Source: Scyliorhinus canicula
Taxonomy: Eukaryota
Direction of reading: 5' to 3'
NCBI RefSeq assembly: GCF_902713615.1
Contig: NC_052159.1
Span: forward strand, 20,348,018-20,412,017
DNA: 64,000 bases
The notes below the pieces were generated by a model that worked only from the letters and a program-made list of their open reading frames with translations, was not told the DNA's origin and made no database searches. Positions 10,636-62,754 of the stretch are shown piece after piece (the first letter of the stretch is position 1; every line of letters begins with the position of its first letter). The translations under genes and the position numbers were made by a program.

Positions 10636-11979
10636 TAATGATAACTTTTACACATATCAAATCTGCACACTTTGTGCTGAATGACAACTACTAAGCCATG
10701 AATCAGACATTGCAAAATGGAAATGTCATCCGCTAAAACCACCCAACAACCAACAATACATGGTTATTGTTCTCATTTTGGAGTTTGCAACATAAACATT
10801 AATACAAGTTTTTATTGACTTTGACACCACATCAAATAAATACAGAAACTGTTCAAATCAGGAAGATCAGGAAGCAGGATGATTGTAAGAGAATCTGTCA
10901 ATATATCATTCACTTTTGAGTTGTAAATCATAGATAAGAGCCAATTCCTAATCGCAAGATGGGAGCTGATGTCTTCGAATTTGGCACGGCTACTTTAATT
11001 AAATATTTGTACGTGGGAAGAATTCAACAGATAAAGACAACATTCTGCCAGCTTGTTTTATTCATCGCATGTAGGCGTTTATTGTCCATCCCTAATTGCC
11101 CTAGTTGCTTGCATGGCCATTCAGAGGGCATTTAAGACTCAACCACACAGCTATGGATCTGGAATCACATGTAGGCCAGATCAGGAAAAGACGGCAGATT
11201 TTCTTCCCTAAAGGACATGAGTGAACCAGGTGGGGTTTTACAACAATCGACATCATTAGATTTTTAATTCCAGACTTACTGAATTCAAATGTTATCATCT
11301 GTCGTGGAGAGATTCGAACCCAGGGTCCCAGATCATTGCTCTGGGTCTCGGGATCACAAATCCACTGACAATACCACTACGCCACTCTCTCAGGTTGGTA
11401 GGAATAAGAATTGTACAGAATCACAGCTCCTAATTTCTCACTATTAAGGAAATATTCCAACTTGTCTTTCTCAAATCCCAAGTGGTCAACCTCACAAATG
11501 GAACTCCATGGTTTTGCCCACTCCTTTATGAAAATGAAATGAAATGAAAATCGCTTATTGTCACGAGTAGGCTTCAATGAAGTTACTGTGAAAAGCCCCT
11601 AGTCGCCACATTCCGGCGCCTGTCCAGGGAGGCTGGTACAGGTTAGTCTGCTAATGTCCTTTTGATAATTTCACGTTCCTGACCATACAATTTACCACTA
11701 ACAAAATGCCACCTGCAAACTTCGGTGTACTTTCCATTCCTTCATCTAAGTCATTGATAAATATGGTGAGAAGCTGAGGTCCCAATATAGATTCCTGGAA
11801 AACACAAGATACCACTGCCAAGGGGAAATTGGGGCAGGAGCTGGATGAGCACTCAGGAGTAATGCATATCAAAGGCAGACTTTGTTGATAGCAGGCAGTC
11901 CCAAGGCATAAAGCATTGCCTTGTGACGCAGTGGGTAGCGTCTCTGTCTCTGGGCCAGAAGCTCCGTGTTTGAGCTCCG

Positions 11980-12392
11980 GTAGCATAGCGGTTAGCACTG
12001 TGGCTTCACAACACCAGGGTCCCAGGTTCAATTCCCCGTTGGGTCACTGACTGTGCAGAGTCTGCACGTTCTCCCCGTGTCTGCGTGGGTTTCCTCCGGG
12101 TGCTCCGGTTTCCTCCCACAGTCCAAAGACGTGCAGGTTTGGTGGATTGGCCATGGTAAATTGCCCTTAGTGTCCAAAAAGGTTATGAAATGAAAATGAA
12201 AATCGCTTATTGTCACGAGTAGACTTCAATGAAGTTACTGTGAAAAGCTCCTAGTCGCCACATTCCGGCGCCTGTCCGGGGAGGCTGGTTATTGGGTTAG
12301 TGGGATAGGGTGAAAGTGATGGCTTAAGTGGGTCAGTGCAGACTCGATGGGCCTAATGGCCTCCTTCTGCACTGTTTGTTCTATGTTCTATG
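11980..12392 (+). mobile_element. HE1-like SINE with a nested short retroposon (about 12186-12286, minus strand)
   Basis: SINE head, core and tail interrupted by a (gaaat)n-tailed element flanked by ggttat duplicates. Confidence 0.78.
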
Positions 12393-13412: not shown

Positions 13413-13760
13413 AGCAGCACGGTAGCATTGTGGATAGCACAATCGCTTCACAGCTCCAGGGTCCCAGGTTCGATTCCGGCTTGGGTCACTGTCTGTGCGG
13501 AGTCTGCACATCCTCCCCGTGTGTGCGTGGGTTTCCTCCAGGTACTCCGGTTACCTCCCACAGTCCAAAGATGTACAAGTTAGGCGGATTGGACATGATA
13601 AATTGCCCTTAGTGTCCAAAATTGCCCTTAGTGTTGGGTGGGGTTACTGGGTTATGGGGATAGGGTGGAGGTGTTAACCTTGGGTAGGGTGCTCTTTCCA
13701 GGAGCCGGTGCAGACTTGATGGGCCGAATGGCCTCCTTCTGCACTGTAAATTCTATGATC
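13413..13760 (+). mobile_element. tRNA-derived SINE (HE1-like) with CR1-type tail
   Basis: A/B-box head (GGTTCGATTCC), core GGGTTTCCTCC...CCCACAGTCCAAAG, tail ggccgaatggcctccttctgcactg. Confidence 0.88.
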
Positions 13761-16583: not shown

Positions 16584-16935
16584 GGGCAGCACGGTAGCAT
16601 GGTGGTTAGCATAAATGCTTCACAGCTCCAGGGTCCCAGGTTCGATTCCCGGCTGGGTCACTGTCTGTGCGGAGTCTGCACGTCCTCCCTGTGCGTGCAT
16701 GGGTTTCCTCCGGGTGCTCCGGTTTCCTCCCACAGTCCAAAGATGTGCGGGTTAGGTGGATTGGCCATGCTAAATTGCCCGTAGTGTCCTAAAAAGTAAG
16801 GTTAAGGGGGGGGGGGGGGGGTGTTGGGTTACGGGTATCGGGTGGATACGTGGGTTTGAGTAGGATGATCATTGCTCGGCACAACATCAAGGGCCGAAGA
16901 GCCTGTTCAGTGCTGTACTGTTCTATGTTCTATGT
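16584..16935 (+). mobile_element. tRNA-derived SINE (HE1-like)
   Basis: Same head and core; ttctatg tail. Confidence 0.88.
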
Positions 16936-17559
16936 TAGTACCCAATTATTTTTTTCCAATTAAGGGGCAATTTAGCATGGGTAAACCACCTAACCGGCAC
17001 ATCTTTGGGTTGTGGGGGTGAGACCCACGCGGACATGAGGAGAATGTGCAAACTCTATAAGGACAGTCACCCAGGATCAGGATCGAACCCGGGTCCTCAG
17101 CGCCGTAGGCTGCAGTGCTAACCACTGCGCCACCGTGCCACCCTGGTATCATGGAATTGAACCGGTCACTTCCGTTATTTAACATAACATGAATTCATAT
17201 AGCGCCTTTCTCAACCAAGTCTGCTGCACCCACAACAGAGTTGCACTCCCTCAGTGCCAGTCAGGTCATTCTGGGTTTTGTGTTCAAGTCTCTTGAGTTG
17301 GGGAGGCGGTGGTGGCAAACACTTAAAGATCTTTGAACATGTTAGAAAGCTTAAGCCGACAAAGAAACAATGTATGTGTCATTTTAAATATCGGCAATTT
17401 GCCGAGATGCTACATGAAGGAAGCGTGTTAGTCTATATCAGTATCAAACACCATTATCAGCCACCTCAACACAAAGTATCCAAACTGTAACAGTGAGAAC
17501 TGAAATTGGCAACTTTTTCAGGCAACTTCCCTGATCCTTCCACTCAACCTAACTTCCCC

Positions 17560-35389: not shown

Positions 35390-35739
35390 GATCATAGAAT
35401 TTACAGTGCTGAAGAAGGCCATTCGGCCCATCGAGTCTGCACTGGCTCTTGGAAAGAGCTCCCTACCCAAGGTCCACACCTCCACCCTCTCCCCATAACC
35501 CAGTAACCCCATCCAACACTATGGGCAATTTTGGACACTAAGGGACAATTTAGCATGGCCAATCCACCTAACCTGCACATCTTTGGACTGTGGGAGGAAA
35601 CCGGAGCACCCGGAGGAAACCCACGCACACACGGGGAGGATGTGCAGACTCCGCACAGACAGTGACCCAAGCCGGAATCGAACCTGGAACCCTGGAGCTG
35701 TAAAGCAATTGTGCTATCCACAATGCTACCGTGCTGCCC
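35390..35739 (-). mobile_element. tRNA-derived SINE (HE1-like), near-identical to 13413-13760
   Basis: Reverse-complement match; further copies near 15650, 16945, 18265, 23975, 32400, 33500, 34090, 36140, 50038, 52720, 53037, 63225. Confidence 0.88.
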
Positions 35740-36559
35740 TTTTAAGTATCAATAGCAGAATACGCAAACATTTGAAATCTCTATCTTATGTAAATTAATA
35801 GTGAAATTAACAGTTTAGATCAGAGAGCAAGACCTGTCAATCAAAAACTTTTTCCCTGGTGCTTAATTGTTTCAAAAAGCTGTTTTTACATTATAGGGTT
35901 CATTAGTTCAATAAAGTGTGGAGTGGATAAATGGGCAAAGTGACATACCTTATTCTGGAGGGCATGAGGGGCCATAAGGGGTGGATATGGGCATTCCTTG
36001 GCATGGGGACATGAGGATAACCTTTTGCTCTTATCTTTCAAAAGGTTTCCTCGTGCAGTTCTTTGGTGCCATGAACTAGGATTCTTTGAAAAGCTGGCCT
36101 GACTCCATGAAAATTGAGGACAACTAGGACATGCCATAGGCGGCATGGTGGCGCAGTGGTTATCACTGCTGCCTCACGGCGCCGAGGACCCGGGTTCCAT
36201 CCCGACCTCAGGTCACTGTCCATGTGGAGTTTGCACATTCTCCCTGTGCCTGCTTGGGTCTCACCCCAACAACCGAAAGATCTGCAGGGTAGATGGATTT
36301 GCCACGCTAAATTGCCCCTTAATTGGAAAATAAATAATTGGGCACTCTAAATTTATTTTAAAAACACTAGGACATGTCAATCACTGCAACAGAGGCAGCC
36401 AGGTGGGGACTACGGCTGCGGGGTCACATCCTGAGCCAATCTTCACACTTATGCCGTGGTGAAATCTCAAGAATGAGATCAGGATCCGGCCACCATTTGT
36501 AAAGGTCCACAGAATCTCCCTGACTCCTCAAAAATCCAGCCCATTAACTCTGTTTCTCC

Positions 36560-37508
36560 TGTAGCCATGCTGGCCACGCAAAATGGACACTGAGCCAAAC
36601 TAAAATGGAAGGCTGCTGGGAAACAGACAGTTCAGCCAGAACAGCAGTCTGCAAAGAGCAGTTTGCATTCTGCAGCAGCAGAAACCAGTTTGGGCTCAGG
36701 TGAAAAGACCTTAGCTAGGTGCAAATGGCAAAACGCTTTGCATGCTAATGAGGCCATCAGACTTGAACACCCACACAATAGATACATTTGGTTCTGAATG
36801 GACACATTCCAATCAAGACCCAGACATCGAGGCACCAGAAACCTCCGAACAAAAGGACATAAGAAACGCCCCCTCCATCACGGAGACCCCCTCGCATTGG
36901 GGAATTAATCCAGTATCGATAAGAAATTGATCCAATAGGTAGAGCCCGCCCGAGAAGAGGGAAGGACAACGGAACCCCTATAAAAGATAGGGACCTCGTG
37001 TTGTCCGGTCTGTTAAACCCGTGCTCCGGCTCCGACTGACACCTGGTATCCTGACTCCAGCCGTTGAGCACCAGCCGCCGAAACCGTAAGTTCAACGCTC
37101 GCTACGCGATCCAAGCCCACTAGACTCCCAAGTGCCAGAACGCTTGCTGAAGGCTGCAGACAAAACCAGGACGAAGGCCTCGTTCTCTGACCTTGCCTGT
37201 TCCTGTTAGATAAGTATTCTGTTTGCTTATGTTTAGTTGTAGCTTAGTCTCTTAGTGTGTGCATGAGTATTTATTATTAACTGTATAATAAATATTGATC
37301 GTTTGAACTTGACTAATCGGTGTATCGTCTTTATTACTTTGAACTTGACCTTGGAATACTTGTGACGTTGCCTATACGGCAACTGGCGACTCCAGAGCTA
37401 AATAATTACATAGAACAGAGCCTAGCAGTGTTAAGCACACGTCGAACTCGGAGGCGTGTTAATACACTCCAATAAACGCGTTTTACGCCCATAGTAAAAC
37501 GTGCAACA
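36560..37508 (+). repeat. 5' LTR (949 bp)
   Basis: Starts TGTAGCC, ends GCAACA; CCAAT 36932, TATAAAA 36979-36985, splice donor GTAAGT 37086, AATAAA 37287 and 37471; no visible difference from 45428-46376. Confidence 0.97.
36932..36985 (+). promoter_or_regulatory. LTR U3 promoter (CCAAT box plus TATA box)
   Basis: CCAAT at 36932-36936 and CCCTATAAAAG with typical LTR spacing. Confidence 0.7.
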
Positions 37509-37513
37509 TTTAG

Positions 37514-37531
37514 TGGCGACTCCGCCGGGAC
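37514..37531 (+). other. Primer-binding site complementary to tRNA-Arg(UCU) 3' end
   Basis: TGGCGACTCCGCCGGGAC lies 5 nt after the LTR; its reverse complement GTCCCGGCGGAGTCG-CCA matches the vertebrate tRNA-Arg-TCT 3' end as I recall it. Confidence 0.85.
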
Positions 37532-37826
37532 CCTGTTGTAAGTGGAAACACCACAGTGTCCAGGACCCTGAAATTTGAATTAGAACTCCAAATTGCAGAG
37601 AAAGAAAGAGATCACAAGTATTCAAGGTGTTCAAAATAATAAGCGAAATTCGGAAGTGTGTTTAGTGCATGCGTACTAACAGGGCTGTAAGGTAAAACTG
37701 AAAGCTTTTTGTTGCGACAAACTTTCGGTAGTTTTGTGATCGGAAAATAGCGTAAGCCGTACCCTTTTTTCGAAACACCACCCCAGCAACCCCCTGTTCC
37801 AAATTATACAAAGAGAGTCAGAGGAA

Positions 37827-39575
37827 ATGGCCATGCAGGCAATGGAACGTCTGATGGATCCAGCAAAGTTTGTGGTCGCAGCGACCAGCAGCAGTAGCAG
37901 AGTAGGCCAGTGTCCCACGTGGGAGCTGGAACTCCGCAAATATCTGCAGGGAAAGGGATGGCCCCTTTGGAAAGAGTTTTGTGCAAATGAGGAGACAGGT
38001 CCCGGGAGTATAGGTCATACTTGGTGGGAGAACCTCTCTCAAATACACAAAAAGAGTTTAGGTAAAGCACGCAAGCCGATGGCGATTGTGTCCTGCTTGG
38101 CACAGTTGCGAGGCGCAGAGGAGGTCATCAGGACGCTCCGGGCAGATTTAGAGGAAAGGAACCGAATGAGTAAGGTCGATGTCAGGGACATCGAGAAAGA
38201 AAACCTGGATCTTAAAGGGAAGTTGGCAGAGAAGGGTAGAGAGGTGGATGATGCCAAGAGGGCTCACCAGTCTTGTCTAGCTCATCTGAACAGTTCCCAG
38301 ACCCAGTATGAGAAAGCCTATCAGGACGTGCAACGTGCCGTTCTGATAAGACAGGAATCGGAAAAGCAGGTGGAGGCATTGCAGAGGCAATGTTCCGATC
38401 TCAAAGCAGCTTTGAGAGCACTCCACGCTGCAACGACCGAACAAAGACAAAGCACAGTTGACCACGCGAAATGCAGGAAACAGATTGCGGAACTGCAATC
38501 TCTGCTTTCGGTGCAGAATGGCTTCCAAAGCACCTTTGGAGCACAGTTAGATGGAGAAAACGCCCCAGATTGGCAGGAATTAAGCGAGACAGCGCAGCGT
38601 TATGTTCAGGGAACATGTGCGCCCGCAGCTCAGCAGAAACGACAGGCACCCCAACCCCCCACAGCTCAGATCATAACCGCACCCATGAATCCCGTAACCA
38701 CACAGAGGAAAGCCGAATCAGAAGGCGCCCCAGACATAACTTACACCACCCCTTTAACAGTAACCCAGCTAAGGGACGCTTGTGAAAAGATCACTCCGTT
38801 CCTCCCCACCGCAGACCCCCACCAGTTTTTCGCTAAAGTAAAACAGCAGGCTACCATGTACGGCCTGGATGAGAGAGAGCAGGTTAAGCTCACCGTGCTG
38901 AGCTTAGACCAGAGTGTAGTGGCAGCCCTCCCCGACCCACAAAACGTGGCAGGAGGCAGCCTAGAGGAGATGCACACTGCCATTTTAGATGCCATCGGGT
39001 ACAATAGAGGTGACCCCGTAGAAGGATTGAATAAGTGCAGGCAGAAGAGATCCGAACACCCCACAGCATTCGCAGGAAGGCTGTGGATTCATTTCAGCGC
39101 AGTTTTCGGACAGTTAGATAGAGCGCATTTAACCCGCGAAAACATGGTTAAGTGGACGCGCACAATTATCTCACACGCAACAGAAGCAGGACAGAGCGCT
39201 TGCAATAGTTACGACCCCTCAGAAGAGGCCCATAACGAAAAATGGGTCCTGAAAAGATTGTCCCGCGCTTGGGAGCAATCGCTTCAGGCAAAAGGAAAGG
39301 TTAGATCCCCAGAAGAGGCTCAGGCTGCTGCAGATATCCAAGCAGTCAGAGAGCACCAGAAGCCCGCATGGGTAAATGAAGGCAAGAGCAGCCCTCAACA
39401 GAAAGGACAGGAATGCTATAACTGTGGACAGTTAGGGCATTGGGCAAAAGAGTGTAATGCACCCCAGCGATCTCAGAGAGGCCAGCAGACAGGCACTCTG
39501 AACCGCAACAAAGCAAAACCCATCCACAATGTAGCAGTACAGTCAGGACCCACCAATGTGGACGAGACGAACTGA
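37827..39575 (+). CDS. gag: Gag polyprotein (coiled-coil N-terminal region, capsid, one CCHC knuckle), 582 aa
   Basis: Long ORF after the PBS; MHR-like QKRSEHPTAFAGRL; zinc knuckle CYNCGQLGHWAKEC. Confidence 0.93.
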   Translation: MAMQAMERLMDPAKFVVAATSSSSRVGQCPTWELELRKYLQGKGWPLWKEFCANEETGPGSIGHTWWENLSQIHKKSLGKARKPMAIVSCLAQLRGAEEVIRTLRADLEERNRMSKVDVRDIEKENLDLKGKLAEKGREVDDAKRAHQSCLAHLNSSQTQYEKAYQDVQRAVLIRQESEKQVEALQRQCSDLKAALRALHAATTEQRQSTVDHAKCRKQIAELQSLLSVQNGFQSTFGAQLDGENAPDWQELSETAQRYVQGTCAPAAQQKRQAPQPPTAQIITAPMNPVTTQRKAESEGAPDITYTTPLTVTQLRDACEKITPFLPTADPHQFFAKVKQQATMYGLDEREQVKLTVLSLDQSVVAALPDPQNVAGGSLEEMHTAILDAIGYNRGDPVEGLNKCRQKRSEHPTAFAGRLWIHFSAVFGQLDRAHLTRENMVKWTRTIISHATEAGQSACNSYDPSEEAHNEKWVLKRLSRAWEQSLQAKGKVRSPEEAQAAADIQAVREHQKPAWVNEGKSSPQQKGQECYNCGQLGHWAKECNAPQRSQRGQQTGTLNRNKAKPIHNVAVQSGPTNVDETN

Positions 39576-42500
39576 CGGTGTTCGGGCTCCCCCACTTGGG
39601 TCTGTGACACACTATGGGACTCATCAGGGAGGCCCGTAGTCACGGCAAAAGTCAAAGGGAAGCCCATAGAGTTACTGTGGGACACAGGAGGATCCCGCAC
39701 CACCATTAACTCCACAACCACGGCACACGCAGACACGTGGCCGACCACCTCCACCATCACACTTAGCGGGTTCACCGGACACTCGCAGCAGGGACATATC
39801 ACAGCACCCGTAGCGATCCAGCTAGGGAACATTTCCACAAGACACCCCGTAGTTTTAGTAAATCTTCCCCGGACAGCAGAGCACATCCTGGGGATAGATT
39901 TTATGAACGCTCATAGCTTGTCGTTCGACCCAGTGAACCAGTGTGTCTGGCGAATGGCAAGATCAGACAGAGCCCCAGCCACCCTCACAGTAGGAGACTA
40001 CGCTAATCGGATTAGCGCAGTGGGAGAGTACTCATTCGACCTGACTACGCTCCACACCGACAGACAAATTAAGGCCCTACTAAACAAACACAGGACAGCA
40101 TTTGCAAGTCACCGTCATGACTGTGGCAGAATGACTGGACAAGTTCATGTTACCGGACAGGACCCCCGACCGCAAAAGCAGTATAGATTTCCCCTCGAGG
40201 CAGAGGTGGAAATAGAAAAAGTTATAGGCAGCTTGTTGGACCAAGGTGTACTGAGAACGGTAGCCTCCACCAACAATGCCCCTATTTGGCCAGTGAGGAA
40301 GCCCGATGGATCATGGCGTCTGACCATCGATTATCGGGAACTCAACAAAGTAACCCCCGCAGTAGCCCCAACGGTAGCTACTAGTCCCGAGACCATGCTC
40401 AAGCAGGGTCTCAACGCCAAGTACTTCACGGTATTGGACATCAGTAATGGATTCTGGTCAATACCATTGGCAAAAGCGTGCCAATACAAATTCGCATTCA
40501 CTTTTAAAACACAGCAGTACACGTGGACATGCCTCCCACAAGGATTCCACAATTCACCCTCCATTTTCCACCGACAGCTGGCAAGTGGATTAGAGAAATT
40601 TTCCCGACCCGAATGTCTGGTACAGTATGTAGACGACCTACTACTGCAGACAGACACAAAGGCAGAGCACATTTCGCTTCTGGCCGAACTCCTGGAACTC
40701 TTAACTGAAATTGGCTGTAAAGTTAACCCGAAAAAGGCCCAAATATTGGAAAGTAAAGTGATGTATTTGGGAACAGTCATCACGCACGGCAAACGCGAGA
40801 TCGAATTCAAAAGAATTGATTCGATCGTCAAATTGCCCCTTCCCCAGAATGTATCAGCCCTCCGGTCGTTTTTAGGACTGGTTGGCTATTGTCGGAACCA
40901 CATCGACGGATTCGCGACAAAAGCCGCCCCACTTTCAGACCTCCTTAAGAAAGGAGCCCCCTGGGAATGGCTTCCGCAGCATACAGGCGCTGTGGAAGAG
41001 TTGAAACGAGCCCTTAGTGCAGCACCCGCGCTGCTAGTCCCCGACCCACTTTCCCCTTTCGCAATAGAGGTAGCGAGCACCGATCTGACCCTCTCGGCCG
41101 TGTTGCTTCAGGAACGGCACGAGCAGCTAAGACCAGTGGCTTATGCCTCCCGACTGTTAGACCCGGTAGAACAAGGATTTTCAGCCTGTGAGAGGCACCT
41201 CCTTGCTGTCTTCTGGGCAGTTCAGTATTTCTCATACATCACCGGACTCAACCCCATTACTATTCTGACCGAACACACACCCACACAGCTACTACTAGAC
41301 GGTCGACTGAAGGACGGTTCAGTTAGCCAGATTAGGGCAGCTAGGTGGACCCTACTTTTACAAGGACGGGACATTACAGTGAAACGGACACGCACACACA
41401 CATACTTAGCAGACAACCTCCAATACCCCGGACAGCCCCATGACTGTGAAATTGTAGCTCCCCTGCATAACACAGGACCCTTTTTAGCAAAAACACCCCC
41501 CAGGAAGATAGGGAACCCGAAACAAAGCCCCCAGCCCACAGACACGTGTGGACCCTTGAGGATTTATGTAGACGGTTCCTCCAGTTTTAAATGGTGAGCG
41601 TATCACAGGATGCGGCATCTATGTAGAGGACGCGCAGGGGCGCGCTCTCGAAGAGATAGCTCTTAAGTTACCAGGTCACTTAGGCGCGCAGGCAGCAGAG
41701 CTAGCAGCCATAGCGTACATAGTGGACCACCCCGATTCTTTCCCCAGCCCAGCAGACATATATTCAGACAGCTTATATGTCTGCAATAGCCTAACAGATT
41801 TTCTGCCCCTGTGGAGGACACGAGGTTTTGTCTCCGCAGACGGGAAACCCCTTCCATCAGCCCCTCTACTCCAGCATATTTTAGCAAAAGCGAAGGACAG
41901 GACCTTCGGCATTATAAAAGTAAGAAGCCACCATAGGTCATCACCCCCTGGGAATGTAAAAGCCGACGCATTGGCTAAGGCAGGTTCCAGGAGAGGACAC
42001 TTATGGACCCCCCCAGCTAGCGCACCAGCTAGCGCCCCTGTGAGCGCAGTCCAAGTCTCACAGACTGATATTAAAGATCTCGTGGCAGCACAGAAACAGG
42101 ACGGAGACCTCAGGGAGGTTTTCAAGGGAAACTTTGTGCCTGCGTACGAGCACTTTAAACACGCACTGACCACACATGAGGGTGTGATCATTAAGGACCA
42201 ACTTTATGTGGTCCCACAGCAGGACAGGAATCAGATGATTGCCTTGTTCCATGACGGCCACGGGCATCAGGGAATTGATGCAACAACGAGGCACCTCAGG
42301 CAACTCTGTTGGTGGCCTAATCTCAGGAATGATGTAACGCACTACATAGAGAATTGCCTGATTTGTGCTCAGAATAACCCGGAGCGGTATTCTAAGAAAG
42401 CACAACTTCGGCATACTCGCCCAGTTAACGGCCCTTGGACAAACCTCCAGATCGACTTTATAGGTCCATTGCCCCCTTGTAGGAATGGCTATAAATACGT

Positions 42501-43800
42501 TCTGGTGGTGATAGATACCTTTACCAAGTGGGTAGAGGCATTTCCCTCACGAACAAACACAGCTAAGACAGCTGCAAAGATCCTGACCCACCACATCTTC
42601 ACGAGATGGGGTTTACCCCGAAGTATCGATTCGGACCAGGGATCTCACTTTACAGGACGGGTCATGAGGAACGTCCTGACAATATTCGGAATCAAACAGA
42701 ACTTCCACATTGCGTATCATCCACAGTCCAGCGGGATTGTGGAGCGCATGAATCGGACCCTAAAAACTACCCTCAGGAAAATGGTTCAAGAGAACAATTC
42801 CACATGGGATTCAGTGCTCCCATTTGCACTTATGTTCATAAGGAACACTGTCTCCACATCGACAGGATACACACCACACACACTCATGACCGGACGCCCT
42901 ATGAAAGGTACAGAATTCCTTTTAGGACTGGACATGACAAGCCCCGAAGTGACGGCCCTCACACATGAAAAGGCAGTTAAAGATCTAGTTGAGACTGTGA
43001 GGTCTGCACAGCTCGCAGCCGCAGTCCAGCTAGGGAAACGCCGACAGCAACGGACTGCCTGTTTCAATAAGACCGTACACACCACAGAATTCCAGGTTGG
43101 GCAACAGGTAATGTTATCTGTTTATAACCCCAGCAGTTTTTTGGCTCCAAAATATTCCGGTCCCTACTCAATTTCGGACAAAATTAGCCCCTCCGTTTAC
43201 AGGATAAAGTATCCTAATGGGAAGACCGCGTGGTTCCATATAAACCAGTTAAAGGCATATGGAACACAGGCCAACCATGCTCACCATGTCCTGCTGGATG
43301 CAGCAGAACACTTCACCCCGCCCACCAGAGACACTTTTCCACCATCCCCCTCACAGACCAGTTCATCCACGGACTCGCCCACGACTCCGCCCACAGACCA
43401 CTACAGACCACGCCCCGACACGCCCACAAGCTGCCACAGCAGAGACAGTAGGACTGACACTGACTCTGAAGACAGCGACACCACACAGCCATACAGCCCA
43501 CACTGCACCAACTACGACCCCGACTCCAGTGACCCCATGGAAGTCACCTACCTCAAATATCCAGAACCACCACCCGACCCCGACTACCCCGACAACACAC
43601 TCGACGCTACACAATGGCACAGGGACAATTCCTACAGACTTGTCCGCAATGACGAGAGTGACCCCCGGTCACACAATTCCAAAATTGCATGCCTGATCCA
43701 CACAAGGGTGTGGGATCCGGGAGAGCAGGATGACACGGTGTCTGACTCCCGACACGGCAACCCCTTTGTGACCCTGTTCACAGAGGCAGAATCAAAGTGA
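39576..43800 (+). CDS. pol: Pro-Pol: protease, RT, RNase H-like tether, RNase H, integrase; in frame with gag via UGA readthrough; one frameshift near 41583
   Basis: Open from the gag stop; LWDTGG (39681) and HILGIDF protease motifs; LPQGF and YVDD (40626); degenerate RH (IEVAS, ERHLLAV, LTEH); second RH YVDGS...AQAAELAA...YSDS...GNVKADALA; HHCC, D-D(35)E and GPY integrase motifs. Confidence 0.93.
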
Positions 43801-44739
43801 GGTGTCCAGATGATGTAAGATAGGAATCGTTTGAGGGAAACGATGTCCTTTCTGATGGAACCTGCACGTATGTTTGTCTTCGTTTTATGTTTGTTTGTTC
43901 TCAGGTTTGTACATTGTTCAGCTGGAGGATGGACATCTTCTTTTCAGCTGAAAAGATTGTGACCACCTCACATGCACGTTAGTTTGTCCGCAGATACCTT
44001 TGAGAACTTCGGTTGGATTGGAGATCTTTTCCAAAGTTGTAAGGCCACACGCCAAATAGTTTATCTGCAGATATCTCTGAGAACTTCAGTGATGTCCTCA
44101 GTTGGAGCATCTTGGCTCCCTTGGTTTTTTAGGTGCCCCTCTATTCGGCGAAATAGAGGCTGCAAGTCATGGTAAACACATTCGTACCCGTTTTTTCCAG
44201 GTTACTCAGGCAGTGGACAAACGGCACTGAGGACCCGCCCTGTCTGAGAACCAACCCTTGGTCAGCCAAGCTCGGGTATGGCACAGCACGCCCTACCCGG
44301 GGATCCCATCCAACTCGTACCCGTAGCGGCCCATACGCAACTCATTCGGATGTTTATTTCCAAGTTTGTTTTCATTTTACGTTAGGTAGCCCTTCGGCCA
44401 CCATCCCACATGCTATTTACATCCGGGAACATTCGGATGGTAAATCAGCAAAGCCTGCGAGACGGCTCGCAGAAGGAAGGATTGTTAGGTGTATGCTGGT
44501 CTTTAAATTCGCTTTTTGAAAAAAAAAAAAATGAGGGGAGTCACAGGGGGTGACTTAGCCAGTCATTTTAAAGGGTCAATTGGGTTTTGAAAGACAGATG
44601 CACTAACAAGTAAAGGTCTTAAACTGTGTATTGACAGATACTGTGCTTGATCCCAAAGGTTTCAAAGGACGAGACAGAGGTCGAAGCCAGGATTGTCAAT
44701 ACCGGAGGAAGAAGGAAGAGAAAGAAGAAGAACAGCAAA

Positions 44740-45096
44740 ATGATGGAAGCCCACTTATTACTGTTCAATGTCATATGTATATGTGTGGAAACAAGACACG
44801 TTTCCCCCACAACCCCCACCGTAAATGTTTCCATTACAGCAAACCCCCAGTGCTCAGCTCTGATCAGCGAGGTTCAGACCTGGTGTACTAAATTCATGAC
44901 GTGGTACTCCATGTCCTACATAATCGAATCACTGTTGGTGATCGCGATCCTCATCATCCTAGTGCAGACCCTCAGGTTGAGGAAATGGAAGAGGAGAGCC
45001 TCTCGTTCCAGCACCTCACCCATCTATAGAGTGCAATCCCCCATCTTCGGATTCCACCAAACCCCTCAACCCCTCACTGATTACAACACTCTGTAA
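44740..45096 (+). CDS. Small type-I membrane protein in the env position (118 aa; FAST-like architecture, function unproven)
   Basis: AAAATGATGG start context; hydrophobic N-terminus, NVS sequon, C-SALISEVQTW-C loop, TM IIESLLVIAILIILVQTL, RLRKWKRR, terminal YNTL. Confidence 0.72.
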   Translation: MMEAHLLLFNVICICVETRHVSPTTPTVNVSITANPQCSALISEVQTWCTKFMTWYSMSYIIESLLVIAILIILVQTLRLRKWKRRASRSSTSPIYRVQSPIFGFHQTPQPLTDYNTL

Positions 45097-45417
45097 ATAA
45101 AATTCAGCCATGTATTATATTGTTCCATACTCGACTGCCGAGTTGGGAAGTGTGATGTTGTGGTGTGAATGGTTAAGATTTTAGAGTGATTAAATGTTTA
45201 AGTTAAGGTTAAGGTTAATAGTGATAGGTAGAGGTTCCCAATTGTAGTAATGCATGTCCCCTTTGACATAGGGCCAAGTAGAAATGTTAGTTAAAATTTT
45301 TTTTTCTCTTCTTCCCATAGTTTAGAACAGAGTAGAACAGGAACTGGCAAGAGGTCAGAACACAAGGAGGCAAAGTACATAGGTGATCCTTCACAATAGT
45401 ATGATTGTGAGGATCAC

Positions 45418-45427
45418 AAGGAGGGAA
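45418..45427 (+). other. Polypurine tract
   Basis: AAGGAGGGAA directly abutting the 3' LTR. Confidence 0.85.
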
Positions 45428-46376
45428 TGTAGCCATGCTGGCCACGCAAAATGGACACTGAGCCAAACTAAAATGGAAGGCTGCTGGGAAACAGACAGTT
45501 CAGCCAGAACAGCAGTCTGCAAAGAGCAGTTTGCATTCTGCAGCAGCAGAAACCAGTTTGGGCTCAGGTGAAAAGACCTTAGCTAGGTGCAAATGGCAAA
45601 ACGCTTTGCATGCTAATGAGGCCATCAGACTTGAACACCCACACAATAGATACATTTGGTTCTGAATGGACACATTCCAATCAAGACCCAGACATCGAGG
45701 CACCAGAAACCTCCGAACAAAAGGACATAAGAAACGCCCCCTCCATCACGGAGACCCCCTCGCATTGGGGAATTAATCCAGTATCGATAAGAAATTGATC
45801 CAATAGGTAGAGCCCGCCCGAGAAGAGGGAAGGACAACGGAACCCCTATAAAAGATAGGGACCTCGTGTTGTCCGGTCTGTTAAACCCGTGCTCCGGCTC
45901 CGACTGACACCTGGTATCCTGACTCCAGCCGTTGAGCACCAGCCGCCGAAACCGTAAGTTCAACGCTCGCTACGCGATCCAAGCCCACTAGACTCCCAAG
46001 TGCCAGAACGCTTGCTGAAGGCTGCAGACAAAACCAGGACGAAGGCCTCGTTCTCTGACCTTGCCTGTTCCTGTTAGATAAGTATTCTGTTTGCTTATGT
46101 TTAGTTGTAGCTTAGTCTCTTAGTGTGTGCATGAGTATTTATTATTAACTGTATAATAAATATTGATCGTTTGAACTTGACTAATCGGTGTATCGTCTTT
46201 ATTACTTTGAACTTGACCTTGGAATACTTGTGACGTTGCCTATACGGCAACTGGCGACTCCAGAGCTAAATAATTACATAGAACAGAGCCTAGCAGTGTT
46301 AAGCACACGTCGAACTCGGAGGCGTGTTAATACACTCCAATAAACGCGTTTTACGCCCATAGTAAAACGTGCAACA
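45428..46376 (+). repeat. 3' LTR (949 bp)
   Basis: Copy of 36560-37508; followed by TSD CTCC. Confidence 0.97.
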
Positions 46377-46581
46377 CTCCCCACAGATGCTACCTGACCT
46401 GTTGAGTATTTCCAGCATTTCATGTTCAAATTTCAGATTTTCAACATCAGCAGTATGTGTTTTGCCTTTTTATTAACTTTTATCAGCTCTTTTGTGGACA
46501 CTCCGTGGGATGTTCCCAAGCTGAGCATTACATCCAAGAGCTTTAAAAGTAGCTGTGTTTTCTCTACATCTTGTTTTTCAG

Positions 46582-59500: not shown

Positions 59501-62500
59501 AATGGTACTAATATCCTGTGCAGTCGGTGCACCATATTTCAACAGTGCAGTATGCATAAACATACACAACAGAACACAACCACATTTTAGTGTGATTGTA
59601 TGCAAGAAATTATCTTTCGAGAATTATAAAAAGTCCAATCAGCACTATCACTGACTAAACTACGTAAATAGGTGAGCAAAGTTAAATTTATCTCAATTTA
59701 CAAAGTGGCACGGAGAATTTAGCCAAATGTCATTCATCTGGAAATCAAAGGGGATTTGTAGGTTGCAGGTCTCCCCCCACCCCTCTCCCAGGTTAAGTAG
59801 GCTACTGGGAGACCGAAAGGGCGCCCTCGGAAAGCAAAGTGGAATAACAAACATGCGATATTGAACAGGAAAAGAACAGCAAAATAGAACATAAAAACAC
59901 CATCTTTACCTACTCTTTATTTTCACAGCCTCTGCCTACCTTCACCTCCCACTGCCTGCAAAACATCACCTAACCTTCCTAACCACCTTGTCTATTCCTA
60001 GCAGCCAGTGGCGACGACCCACCGTATGCTCCAGAAACCTTCTGCTGGGACAGATTAAAGACATCTCAATTTGGGAACCAGTGAGAGACAATAAAAACTG
60101 TACATTATTATATTCACCACAGTATTTAATTTTGGCTTGAAGAGCTGTCTAAAGAACAAATGTACTTACCTCTTATGTGAAAAGACTCTGACTCTACAGG
60201 ACTTTTATCTTCCCTAAGCTGTTCCTGCAACTACAAACAATAGTCACTATTAGTCAAATGATCGCACAAACCTTTCCTAATTCAGAATAGAAAAATGTTA
60301 ACACTCAAGTAATTTTGTACTAAAGCAGAGAGCTGAAGGTGAAGTGGCACAGGGGCAAGGTAAAGTGGTTCAAGGTGAGAGAGAGGTTCCCCTCCAAGAT
60401 GCACAACATCCTATCTTGAACATAAATTGCCGCTCCTGCATCGTTGAAGTGATGAGGAAAGATTTTTTTCACCCAGAGGGCTTTTGGGCACTGGAACTCA
60501 CTGCGTGAAAGGGTATCAGAGGTAAAAACCCTCAACTCATTGAAAAGGCATCTGAATATACACCTCGAGTGCAGTAAGCTTCAGGGTGACCAACCAAATC
60601 TAGGAAGTGGGATTAGGCTGGGTGGCTCATTTTTCCGCCGGAGCAGGCTCAATGAGTTAAGTGGCCTGTTTCTATGCTGTAAACTTTCAATGATTCTATG
60701 ATTATGGGAGGATATTTTCATGAGGCATTAACTCTTTAAGTTGTTAAACTATTTCTTGCATATACCAATGGACAATAAAAGATACTGGTATTGCATTTTC
60801 AGTTGCTTGCATTTGATTACTATCACTGTTCAATCTCCCTATAAAAAGAACATTTTCTACAGAATTCGAACAATCATAAAATAACTAATTTTTATTTTTA
60901 AAAGGTATCAGCTAAAGTCACAATTTAAAAAATTCTAACCAACTTGTTTTGTAGCTAATATATTTATGATGTGGAGATGCCGACGTTGGACTCGGGTTAA
61001 CACAATAAGAAGTCTTCCAACACCAGGTTAAAGTCCAACAGGTTTGTTTTGAATCACTAGCTTTCGGAGCACTGCTCACCTGAGGAAGGAGCTGCGCTCC
61101 GAAAGCTAGTGTGCCTTTGCAAAGCAGGTCTGGAGTGAGATGCAGTGGTATCTGTCAAGGTTCATCCCGAGCAGCTCTGTAACACAGGACTCTGTGCTCT
61201 ACGGACTGTTTCCAGGGACACACACCGAAACAAATATCAACTGCTGCTGGAAGGTCATCAACTCGGTGAAAGACGCTCTTTGGTTTGCCCGAAACTTGCT
61301 GATCTTCCAGTGCAAAGAACTGTCCTCGACCGAGTGTTGCAGACTGGCACATTCCAAGCTCCAGGACTACGTGCTGAGGGACGCACTCAAGCTTGGGGCA
61401 GCTGCCGCCAAGGCGCAATGGGGAAAGACCACAGTGTAAGGTCTTACCAACAAATGTACACCGAGGGGTTGGTAACAGTGTAAAACCCCTCGGCCCGGGT
61501 CTTCAATACCACAATGTATGAAAGAAGCAAAACAATGTAAATATTTAAGAAAGAACTGTAACTCATTGTAGGATACGTGTGTAACGTTATCCCAATTGAA
61601 TTGAAGAAAGACAAATGAATGTAACTCGGATGGAAATGCACAGTCAAGACAATTTGAAATGTTCTGTAAAGTTTATGATAAATTTTATGAATAAAGTATA
61701 TTTTTTGAAAAAAAAACTAGCTTTCAGAGCACTGCTTCTTCCTCAGGTGATTTGAGACCTGAGACCCGAGGAAGGAGCAGTGCTCCGAAAGCTAGTTGAA
61801 ACGAACATGTTGGACTTTAACCTGGTGTTGTAAGACTTCTTACTGGACTTTAATCTGGTGTTGCAAGACTTCTTAATATATTTATGGCCAGTCATTGATC
61901 ACACCACACTGAACTGTCAAAATTACGTACTTGATGCACCTCTGCCCGGATAAGGAGATCAAGCTGAAAGCAGAGAGACCAGATTTCCACAGCCACCTGC
62001 TCACTACTCAGTTGGATGGGTTGAAGGGGTTTCTTAATGTTAACATCCACTGCACACAAAGAGAACAAAGCACATGTTATATTATGAATATGCAAAGTTA
62101 ACCTGTACAACACAACAAAAGAAAACATAGAATACACAGTGCAGAAGGAGGCCACTCGGCCCCTCGAGTCTGCACTGACCCACTCAAGCCCTCACTTCCA
62201 CCCTAACCCCGCAACCCAATAACCCCATCTAGCCTTTTAGGTCACTAAGGGCAATTCATCATGGCCAATCCAACTAACCTGTACGTCTTTGGACTGTGGG
62301 AGAAAACCGGAGCACCCGGAGGAAACCCACGCAGACACGGGGTAAACGTGCAGACTCCACACAGACAGTGACCCAGCGGGGAATTGAACCTGGGACCCTG
62401 GCGCTGTGAAGCCACAGTGCTAGCCACTTGTACTACCCTAAACCTGGGACCCTGGTGCTGTGAAGCCACAGTGCTAGCCACTGGTGCTACCCTAAACCTG

Positions 62501-62754
62501 GGACCCTGGAGCTGTGAAGCCACAGTGCTAGCCACTGGTGCTACCCTCAACCGTTAAACACGGTGGGCACTAAATGCGGGGCCCAGCCGCCAGCGCCCGC
62601 ATCCCGCAAAAGATAGATTAAATAAAAGGCCCCATTTAGCTGATATGATGACATCGGGCGTCTCCCCTCCCCGCCCCCGGGCAGCGGTACCTCTGAAGCG
62701 CCGCTGGTAGGTGCAGGGCTCCCGCAGCGGCTCCGTCTTCCCCACTGCTGCCAT
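47459..62754 (-). CDS. Spliced host gene, 8 coding exons, about 260 aa, uncharacterised predicted helical protein (MAAVGKTEPLREP...HGRPVDMLERPP...HKYIAHQLSVLY...SLAMNLR*)
   Basis: All exons have GT-AG boundaries and matching phases (1,0,1,0,1,0,2), giving one open frame from an ATG in CpG-rich DNA to TGA. Confidence 0.88.
48420..49668 (+). mobile_element. L1-clade LINE 3' fragment
   Basis: KWEEELG, QLKVVYRAHLT and C-x2-C...HMFWSCPKL zinc-knuckle region; G-rich 3' UTR; AATAAA. Confidence 0.85.
50742..50899. repeat. Tandem duplication, 2 x 79 bp, in intron 7 of the host gene
   Basis: agtttaatc...ccattacaga repeated with few mismatches. Confidence 0.85.
50966..51114 (-). CDS. Host gene exon 7 (KVLNYFSG...PFHYVNW)
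   Basis: Acceptor ttttctccttgcag, donor gtgagt. Confidence 0.88.
52002..52120 (-). CDS. Host gene exon 6 (DYFSHIGKLNQLLVLSQQLEDD...LSVLY)
   Basis: Acceptor caatgcag, donor gtaagt, phase fit. Confidence 0.88.
55782..55960. repeat. Near-perfect 180-bp palindrome of a Penelope-derived short repeat
   Basis: Arms mirror around tttgtcaaagctttgacaaa; related repeats at 3780-3900, 5796-5940, 15320-15520, 55225-55440. Confidence 0.8.
55962..57108 (+). mobile_element. L1-clade LINE 3' fragment (same family as 48420-49668)
   Basis: CERCGGGPAIHVHMFWSFPKL; same UTR and tail. Confidence 0.85.
57150..57800 (-). mobile_element. Degraded CR1 3' fragment
   Basis: VRIWNALL...AFKRELDK and VEYKSKE motifs. Confidence 0.7.
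58062..58164 (-). CDS. Host gene exon 5 (DYLDSQGLSTLFPRVEIFVIHGRPVDMLERPPMD)
   Basis: Acceptor cttttacag, donor gtaaga. Confidence 0.88.
58504..58571 (-). CDS. Host gene exon 4 (GVDYVERIKQYLEHLPDPVPQLE)
   Basis: Acceptor catacag, donor gtgatg, phase fit. Confidence 0.85.
60170..60230 (-). CDS. Host gene exon 3 ((LQ)EQLREDKSPVESESFHIR); exon could start at 60230 or 60224
   Basis: Acceptor tttgtag or ttgcag, donor gtaagt, phase fit. Confidence 0.8.
61077..61111 (+). ncRNA. Minimal hammerhead ribozyme motif
   Basis: cac CTGAGGA a ggagc-tgc-gctcc GAAA GCTA gtg. Confidence 0.65.
61112..61717 (+). mobile_element. Tx1-like non-LTR retrotransposon 3' end with polyA
   Basis: WKVINSVKDALWFARNLLIFQ...AKAQWGKTTV*, then AATAAA and an A-tail. 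Confidence 0.8.
61931..62049 (-). CDS. Host gene exon 2 (VDVNIKKPLQ...RAEVHQ)
   Basis: Acceptor tttgtgtgcag, donor gtacgt, phase fit. Confidence 0.85.
62123..62547 (-). mobile_element. HE1-like SINE with triplicated 54-bp tRNA head
   Basis: aacctgggaccctgg...gctaccct units at 62387, 62441, 62495. Confidence 0.85.

Follow-up and report, generated by a model that had tools for sequence, protein, structure and literature searches.

We analysed a 64,000-nt stretch of Scyliorhinus canicula DNA (NC_052159.1 of assembly GCF_902713615.1, positions 20,348,018–20,412,017, forward strand), hereafter the window, which contains a complete 9.8-kb provirus at 36560–46376 with the order LTR (long terminal repeat)-gag-pol-small open reading frame (sORF)-LTR. 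The provirus is very probably a young member of a large catshark family of endogenous retroviruses (ERVs) that lies on the canonical Retroviridae side, in the snakehead retrovirus (SnRV) grade near the base of that family. It is a new variant of deep-branching retroviral ERVs without an envelope gene (env), and the real point of interest is its conserved small membrane gene. An earlier sequence-only reading had singled out its two RNase H domains, a combination that is ordinary for a retrovirus. The features of the provirus are as follows (positions in the window; + is the forward strand).

36556–36559 (left) and 46377–46380 (right): 4-bp target-site duplication (flank comparison)
36560–37508, +: 5' LTR, 949 nt, TG...CA, with TATA at 36979 and AATAAA at 37287 and 37471; 0 mismatches to the 3' LTR
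37514–37531, +: primer-binding site (PBS), complementary to the 3' 18 nt of tRNA-Arg(UCU) (host tRNA-Arg(tct) gene)
37827–39575, +: gag, 582 aa, with a long coiled coil, a capsid region and one CCHC zinc knuckle; terminates at UGA in the same frame as pol (ORF list, Pfam)
39573–39581, +: UGA-CGG stop context, a type II readthrough motif and putative route to Gag-Pol (sequence)
39576–40178, +: aspartic protease (DTG at 39681) and linker (Pfam gag-asp_proteas, RVP)
40179–40970, +: reverse transcriptase (RT), LPQG at 40533 and YVDD at 40626 (Pfam, motifs, tree)
41040–41420, +: tether, a degenerate Ty3/gypsy-type RNase H with three catalytic residues replaced and the fourth uncertain (Pfam, alignment)
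41559–41997, +: second RNase H, D/E/D/D and His, with a frame break at about 41580–41597 in the window copy (Pfam PF00075, alignment)
42220–43260, +: integrase with HHCC, DDE and GPY motifs and an SH3-like C-terminal domain (Pfam, alignment)
43261–43800, +: pol tail, Pro/Thr/Asp-rich, open and fast-evolving (copy comparison)
44200–44350, +: conserved non-coding block, putative cis-acting RNA element (older-copy alignment)
44740–45096, +: sORF, 118 aa, at the env position (ORF, homologs, selection tests)
45418–45427, +: polypurine tract (sequence)
45428–46376, +: 3' LTR, identical to the 5' LTR

The LTRs, tRNA PBS, polypurine tract and gag-pro-pol order with a tether are canonical features of Retroviridae. 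Phylogenetic trees based on RT (39 rows, LG+C20) and on RT plus tether (30 rows) placed the element within Retroviridae (100/99 in the RT tree, and likewise in the other) and outside gypsy (100/100 in both), supporting the earlier view that it is retroviral and not an ordinary Ty3/gypsy element. In the RT tree it formed a clade (99/94) with seven homologs, from frog, coelacanth and unnamed sources. Lokiretroviruses, to which the sequence-only reading had likened the lineage, formed a separate clade with 100/99 support in each tree, and an 87-row RT tree, built with a quick method only, showed the same split. Approximately unbiased (AU) tests rejected the union of the window element with lokiretroviruses (p = 0.0012 for RT and p = 0.0072 in a second test) and that of the window element plus its seven relatives with lokiretroviruses (p = 0.0032). 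RT identity to the window was 47.3% for SnRV, 38–42% for gamma, 39% for lokiretroviruses, 36–37% for foamy and 32–35% for gypsy. The SnRV reference (L031) was recognized by three motifs matching the SnRV rows of the lokiretrovirus paper, and the lokiretrovirus-like references (L046, L047, L048, P0121) by a PFG motif and a gag-stop-pol-env layout; foamy, gamma, epsilon, lenti, alpha/beta and delta labels were assigned from motifs, genome lengths and tree clustering. The lokiretrovirus placement is refuted on RT unless the three lokiretrovirus references in the trees are mislabelled, and these carry the PFG motif and the layout just described. The element is on the Retroviridae side of the split between the two groups. 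What survives of the proposed new branch near the retrotransposon-retrovirus transition is its deep branching; of the lokiretrovirus affinity, a trace is left in the tether and integrase scores and the integrase tree.

An alternative is an ordinary Ty3/gypsy element in which a second RNase H was gained separately, as happened in plant Tat elements. In favour of such an origin, the Gag features resemble Ty3/gypsy capsid clusters (ESM Atlas 0.93) and the tether matches Ty3-type RNase H profiles. However, the RT position in both trees excludes it, an open sister copy scored 241 bits against foamy virus and 237 bits against murine leukemia virus (MLV) but 138 bits against Ty3 in PDB sequence comparisons, and a gamma-type Pol (P0018) bears the same Pfam tether labels. 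An RT within Metaviridae and a single active RNase H, which define Metaviridae, were both lacking. We regard this origin as extremely improbable.

Several observations weigh against the placement that we prefer. The window element and SnRV were not joined in the free trees, and the AU test gave p = 0.34 for that grouping. Tether scores were higher with lokiretroviruses (83–85 bits) than with SnRV (37 bits), as were integrase scores (226–235 versus 117 bits), and in both domains the lokiretrovirus scores also exceeded those of gamma and foamy references. In the RNase H tree the union of the window element with lokiretroviruses was not rejected (p = 0.215). The trees hold three lokiretrovirus rows and one SnRV row only, and Odin elements, ERV-L, ERV4, Ovex1, elephant-shark CmiERV and fish foamy-like ERVs lie outside them. 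Family members were picked by similarity, which favours intact, young copies, and for transcription, splicing, readthrough and the sORF protein the family is known here from genomic DNA alone.

The two RNase H domains, the best scores of tether and integrase among named groups and the RNase H tree are what would favour an env-less member or sister of lokiretroviruses and Odin elements, as first proposed. In addition, lokiretrovirus integrase nested among the element's relatives as sister to three from frog and coelacanth (97/90), although the window element itself was not its sister; the integrase and RNase H trees were otherwise poorly resolved. The lokiretrovirus-like integrase may reflect retained ancestry or integrase exchange. 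Against the lokiretrovirus proposal stand the AU rejections on RT and RT plus tether and the RT motif B, which reads LPQG in the window and PFG in 24/24 published lokiretrovirus RTs (supplementary alignment of PMC7947760). The element also has a zinc knuckle, which is absent from the lokiretrovirus Gag frames fetched, and no F-like env. A lokiretrovirus RT query found nothing above 43% in the S. canicula genome (matches of 40–43%; 146 scored of 73,186 candidates), and the open-frame lengths of those matches, 1408/1411 aa, point to the window's own family. We therefore judge membership in or sisterhood with lokiretroviruses very unlikely.

Lokiretroviruses resemble the element in combining a tether with RNase H, in a gag and pol that share one reading frame interrupted by a stop, and in a similar tether and integrase (PMC7947760); they differ in their own RT clade, PFG instead of LPQG, an env similar to the paramyxo/pneumovirus fusion protein and no detectable Gag similarity (profile probability 4.5%, no match). 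Odin elements (PMC9040795), whose RT is sister to that of lokiretroviruses, share with the window element the lack of env and the dual RNase H. Scans for lokiretrovirus motifs in viral contigs and the S. canicula genome and a single-sequence scan of viral contigs gave no matches, nor did a lokiretrovirus env query against 20 older copies of the family. The lokiretrovirus host list of PMC7947760 names no cartilaginous fish; the supplement covers five such genomes (Orectolobiformes 0/3). Zebrafish lokiretrovirus Gag has been described with an N-terminal coiled coil (10.1101/2024.03.25.586437). The lokiretrovirus-like elements L046–L048 come from metagenome contigs, two of them near full length, and are probably fish host DNA.

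The position within Retroviridae is less settled. SnRV, foamy viruses and orthoretroviruses formed a group that excluded the window lineage (94/92 for RT, 84/80 for RT plus tether), branches are short, and the sister relationship of lokiretrovirus integrase to three of the element's relatives points the same way. The lineage could thus be, with a chance that we put slightly short of even, not part of an SnRV clade but a separate and earliest branch of the canonical retroviruses, which also includes relatives from frog, coelacanth and turtle and has retained an ancestral tether and an integrase type shared with lokiretroviruses. However, its support is under the starred level, the SnRV grouping was not rejected (p = 0.34), the long foamy and lentivirus branches may exert a pull, and key lineages are absent from the trees. 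Such an earlier branch is compatible with the mechanism that we propose below for a member of the SnRV grade. Further deep-branching relatives with dual RNase H were seen in Mustelus asterias (P0145, P0013 cluster) and Pelodiscus sinensis (P0143, P0009 cluster).

SnRV is the nearest named relative by RT (47%) and shares with the element LPQG, an Arg-tRNA primer, an in-frame gag stop, one zinc knuckle, a GPY integrase, dual RNase H and a pol of similar length (1398 versus 1408 aa). The Gag family profile matched SnRV Gag over 214 columns in the capsid-nucleocapsid region (probability 54%, E = 1.3e-4); SnRV was the only reference Gag with an extended, though weak, match. The two differ in the gag stop (UAG-GGC in SnRV, UGA-CGG in the element), in the PBS, which in SnRV is not the tRNA-Arg(UCU) site of the element, in the integrase score of 117 bits and the lack of a joint node noted above, and in the 3' region, where the element has no env and a small membrane ORF without a match in SnRV.

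The broad kind of element, an SnRV-related ERV in a cartilaginous fish, is already known. SnRV-related ERVs (CmiERV lineage I) were reported from elephant shark (PMC4422223); the SnRV-related clade Huo infects all major vertebrate lineages (PMC6001957), and cartilaginous fish hold many ERV RT copies, mostly of clade III (10.1101/2023.10.17.562709). ERV-Spuma.0-Sca (PMC10699275) also comes from a catshark and measures about 9.2 kb, its LTRs being close to 870 nt long. However, it has another LTR start (first 400 nt compared), a 753-codon gag, a 982-codon pol and an annotated env, and is reported to group with foamy-like ERVs of fish, from which the window differs in its RT motifs; it is a different element. 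ERV4 and ERV3/ERV-L (PMC4299795) also have a retroviral pol outside class I/II, but ERV3/ERV4 have a 5-bp target duplication, no zinc finger and no GPY, whereas the element combines a 4-bp duplication with a single zinc knuckle and GPY. No description of the family or of its sORF was found in the open-access literature; Repbase, Dfam and subscription journals were outside the search, and a catalogue entry may exist.

Both Pfam profiles and alignment with MLV RT agree on two RNase H domains where the sequence-only reading had placed them. Pfam placed the Ty3-type RT_RNaseH (E = 2.7e-19) and RT_RNaseH_2 (E = 6.2e-22) downstream of RT, and RNase_H PF00075 (E = 2.4e-12) upstream of integrase, and the open sister copy aligned with MLV RT in one stretch spanning RT, the tether and the second RNase H. 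Where five aligned gypsy RNase H domains have their four catalytic residues, the tether shows A (41073), H (41196), E (41271) and N (41415), the fourth being uncertain since an Asp sits one residue ahead of N 41415. The suggestion that all catalytic positions of the tether are altered thus holds for three, and its register at the first site was off by one (TDAS aligns with VAST, not EVAS). The second RNase H, correctly described as intact and followed by integrase, retains its carboxylates (D 41571, E 41698, D 41767, D 41965) and His 41929. As far as profiles and alignment speak for the folds, the dead tether and the RNase H with all four carboxylates are confirmed as a real pair. The tether would be a structural connection domain, with cutting by the second RNase H as in MLV and foamy RT, and its strong selection (ratio of non-synonymous to synonymous divergence, dN/dS, 0.05 versus 11 older copies) fits such a role. 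In the lokiretrovirus paper itself, dual RNase H is presented as a general retroviral trait (PMC7947760), so this feature cannot tell lokiretroviruses from other retroviruses.

The family has been copied recently and was recently active in its host. LTR pairs were identical in 11 of 15 resolved young copies (19 fetched), a 4-bp target duplication flanked 15 of 17 other copies with scorable flanks (19 fetched), and about 115 of the 150 best copies had a full open pol of 1408 aa (counted by eye and biased to intact copies). Older subfamilies, at ~70–80% DNA identity, have the same layout and LTR pairs that are 92–98% alike. There are hundreds to about a thousand copies in the catshark: an sORF 23-mer of the young subfamily had 706 exact matches in the genome, and the PBS pattern had 485 exact matches (tRNA genes included) and 606 that were one base longer. 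The guess at a cartilaginous-fish host was borne out by sORF homologs named from S. canicula and S. torazame, one of them a 100% match to the S. canicula genome; the four Gag homologs found (71–78%) were from S. torazame only. In one locus (L112, 4768–6812) the 3' 2 kb, equivalent to 44333–46376 of the window and including the sORF and LTR, are repeated in tandem.

The window's own copy, with its pol broken, is a passenger. Its pol is split into two ORFs (39576–41597 and 41572–43800) by a single frame break just past YVDGS, which the sequence-only reading overlooked while giving the right domain order, so that neither the second RNase H nor integrase can be translated in frame from this copy. 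All 30 sister loci (~98% identical, chosen as 100% protein matches to part of the second RNase H domain) were uninterrupted across the tether and the second RNase H, which rules out a programmed frameshift at the break. The pol tail had 0 indels among the 19 young copies and a ratio of non-synonymous to synonymous polymorphism (pN/pS) of 0.29, and was 43–70% identical in older copies.

Downstream of pol, no env-sized frame was found ahead of the 3' LTR, whether in the window, in 19 young copies or in 20 older copies (some internally deleted), which confirms for the window and 39 other copies that the element lacks env and bears an sORF. The distance from the pol stop to the LTR was 1611–1665 nt in 18 of the 19 young copies, with a largest ATG ORF of 142 aa. 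Loss of env is common in ERVs, and its absence therefore lowers the case for an infectious virus, not for an ERV. The S. canicula genome has 78 env-like (TLV_coat) matches, which leaves room for spread with Env borrowed from an env-bearing helper virus. However, none of the 12 env loci fetched shared DNA with the element, the integrase adjoining them was 28–43% identical, and an SnRV env query gave no match in a stricter, shortened search. The full open pol in most of the top copies also argues against a helper, and we hold this route to be improbable. The 78 matches appear to belong to other families.

Since no env was found, intracellular retrotransposition is the simplest route, and the element probably copies itself inside cells. 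Gag would be translated from the first AUG and Gag-Pol by readthrough at UGA-CGG, the family would spread mainly by retrotransposition in germ-line cells, and env may have been lost once, before the split of the two catshark species. The predicted product of the sORF is a small glycoprotein of type-I membrane topology, which would be of benefit to the element. Substitution ratios show purifying selection on pol, the tether and the sORF. Purely intracellular retrotransposition gives no obvious need for a membrane gene.

By sequence and hydropathy, the sORF product starts with a hydrophobic N-terminus, followed by a Pro/Thr stalk that carries an N-glycosylation sequon and by an aromatic segment close to the membrane; a single transmembrane helix, a polybasic stretch and a tail containing Tyr complete it. 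Homologs retain the small size, the single helix and the adjoining polybasic stretch. The frame was open in 18 of 19 young copies, in which pN/pS was 0.43 on 17 changes, a weak signal. Against 20 older copies, dN/dS was 0.12 for the core and 0.26 for the whole sORF, compared with 0.97 and 2.87 for the other two frames; these copies were chosen by protein similarity and are non-independent, which makes the figure optimistic, and dS is near saturation. The comparisons clearly point to constraint across subfamilies and two catshark species. Among 1.84 billion representative proteins, only five matched the sORF, four from catsharks and one a spurious repeat; Pfam and ESM Atlas (best 0.88) gave leads only. 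A recognisable env remnant was rejected, as no match of the sORF profile reached significance among 5222 frames from 63 reference loci (best E = 0.15) or among 561 frames from the 12 env loci of the S. canicula genome (best E = 0.024). A cystine loop like that of reovirus p10 was also rejected because only one of two Cys is conserved. No GT-AG joint to the sORF was found in four sequencing runs (type guessed) read as contigs; of the 18 older copies shown, 9 no longer have the AG of an acceptor-like site at 44200, which is separated from the sORF by seven ATGs. In S. torazame, a HEPACAM2-like gene model (P0133) ends in the membrane helix and polybasic tail of the sORF, either by exonisation of the retroviral ORF in a host gene or as a prediction artefact.

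The catshark sORF may work like the insect sORF2/FAST-like proteins described in a preprint (PMC11952523). Both are small single-pass membrane ORFs of env-less elements with a short ectodomain and a polybasic stretch after the helix, and some lepidopteran cases also lie downstream of pol; reovirus FAST proteins share the small single-helix, juxtamembrane polybasic layout. The catshark sORF is longer (114–118 versus 63–107 aa), belongs to Retroviridae instead of Metaviridae, lacks in the window and 18 older copies the N-myristoylation Gly at position 2 that defines sORF2/FAST (PMC11952523), and, unlike sORF2/FAST, has an N-glycosylation sequon and a cleavable-signal-like N-terminus (by eye and hydropathy). 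Among candidate jobs, we tentatively put interference with a host membrane protein or receptor first, followed by an env-like stump that anchors or routes particles, as a somewhat weaker possibility; fusion or direct cell-to-cell handover seems less likely again, and some other job would be a surprise. The specific proposal that the sORF substitutes for an envelope in cell-to-cell passage (e.g., from somatic follicle cells to the oocyte), as the Retroviridae counterpart of insect sORF2/FAST, we consider doubtful.

These results describe an ERV family with recent activity in a cartilaginous fish, and an env-less ERV that retains a selected small membrane gene across subfamilies and two species. 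A 2023 screen for invading ERVs scored 0/13 cartilaginous fishes and required an intact env (PMC10435555), so the window's family would be missed by design; ERV-L is a known case of env-less amplification (10.1101/2024.07.05.601823). Should the sORF mediate transfer from cell to cell, vertebrate retroviruses would also have the envelope-free route that has been demonstrated in flies. A lineage near the Retroviridae root with a slow-evolving tether and a lokiretrovirus-like integrase is relevant to the succession of domain exchanges put forward in PMC7947760.

The primer is tRNA-Arg(UCU): the PBS matches the host gene (L160), and in three copies (L161–L163) the primer site continues for ~44 nt into spliced, intron-free, CCA-bearing tRNA-Arg(UCU), reverse transcription having run past its usual stop. 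An extra base within the PBS (mostly A, sometimes C or T; L164–L181) was seen in 606 copies versus 485 exact ones, and also on a second tRNA-Arg isodecoder background (L181). This is odd because the site is normally recopied from the tRNA; the base could reflect variation in the tRNA, a slip that RT makes repeatedly, or evasion of silencing by tRNA fragments. Inside each LTR (37384–37392 and 46252–46260), 9 nt repeat the start of the PBS, and diverged LTRs keep them. The UGA-CGG context, a type II readthrough motif (PMC13517186), persists in 8 of the 11 older copies that span the gag-pol junction. Gag (37827–39575) has a coiled coil of more than 100 residues in addition to its language-model likeness to Ty3/gypsy capsid clusters; a structure model made without alignment reached pLDDT 45 and was not used.

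The block at 44200–44350 is the most conserved non-coding stretch between pol and the 3' LTR, with mean identity of 0.81–0.85 across 20 older copies versus 0.45–0.77 in the other 50-nt bins of 43600–45200. Its predicted fold scored -31 versus -14 for column shuffles, with a compensatory change in 1/30 pairs, and Rfam gave two chance matches only. Its conservation suggests that it is probably a cis-acting RNA element, possibly for export, packaging or translation. Elsewhere in the window, many dispersed SINE (short interspersed nuclear element)-like repeats occur on both strands (e.g., 11972–12185, 13414–13760, 16584–16936, 35390–35739, and 62124–62552), which look like shark tRNA-derived SINEs.

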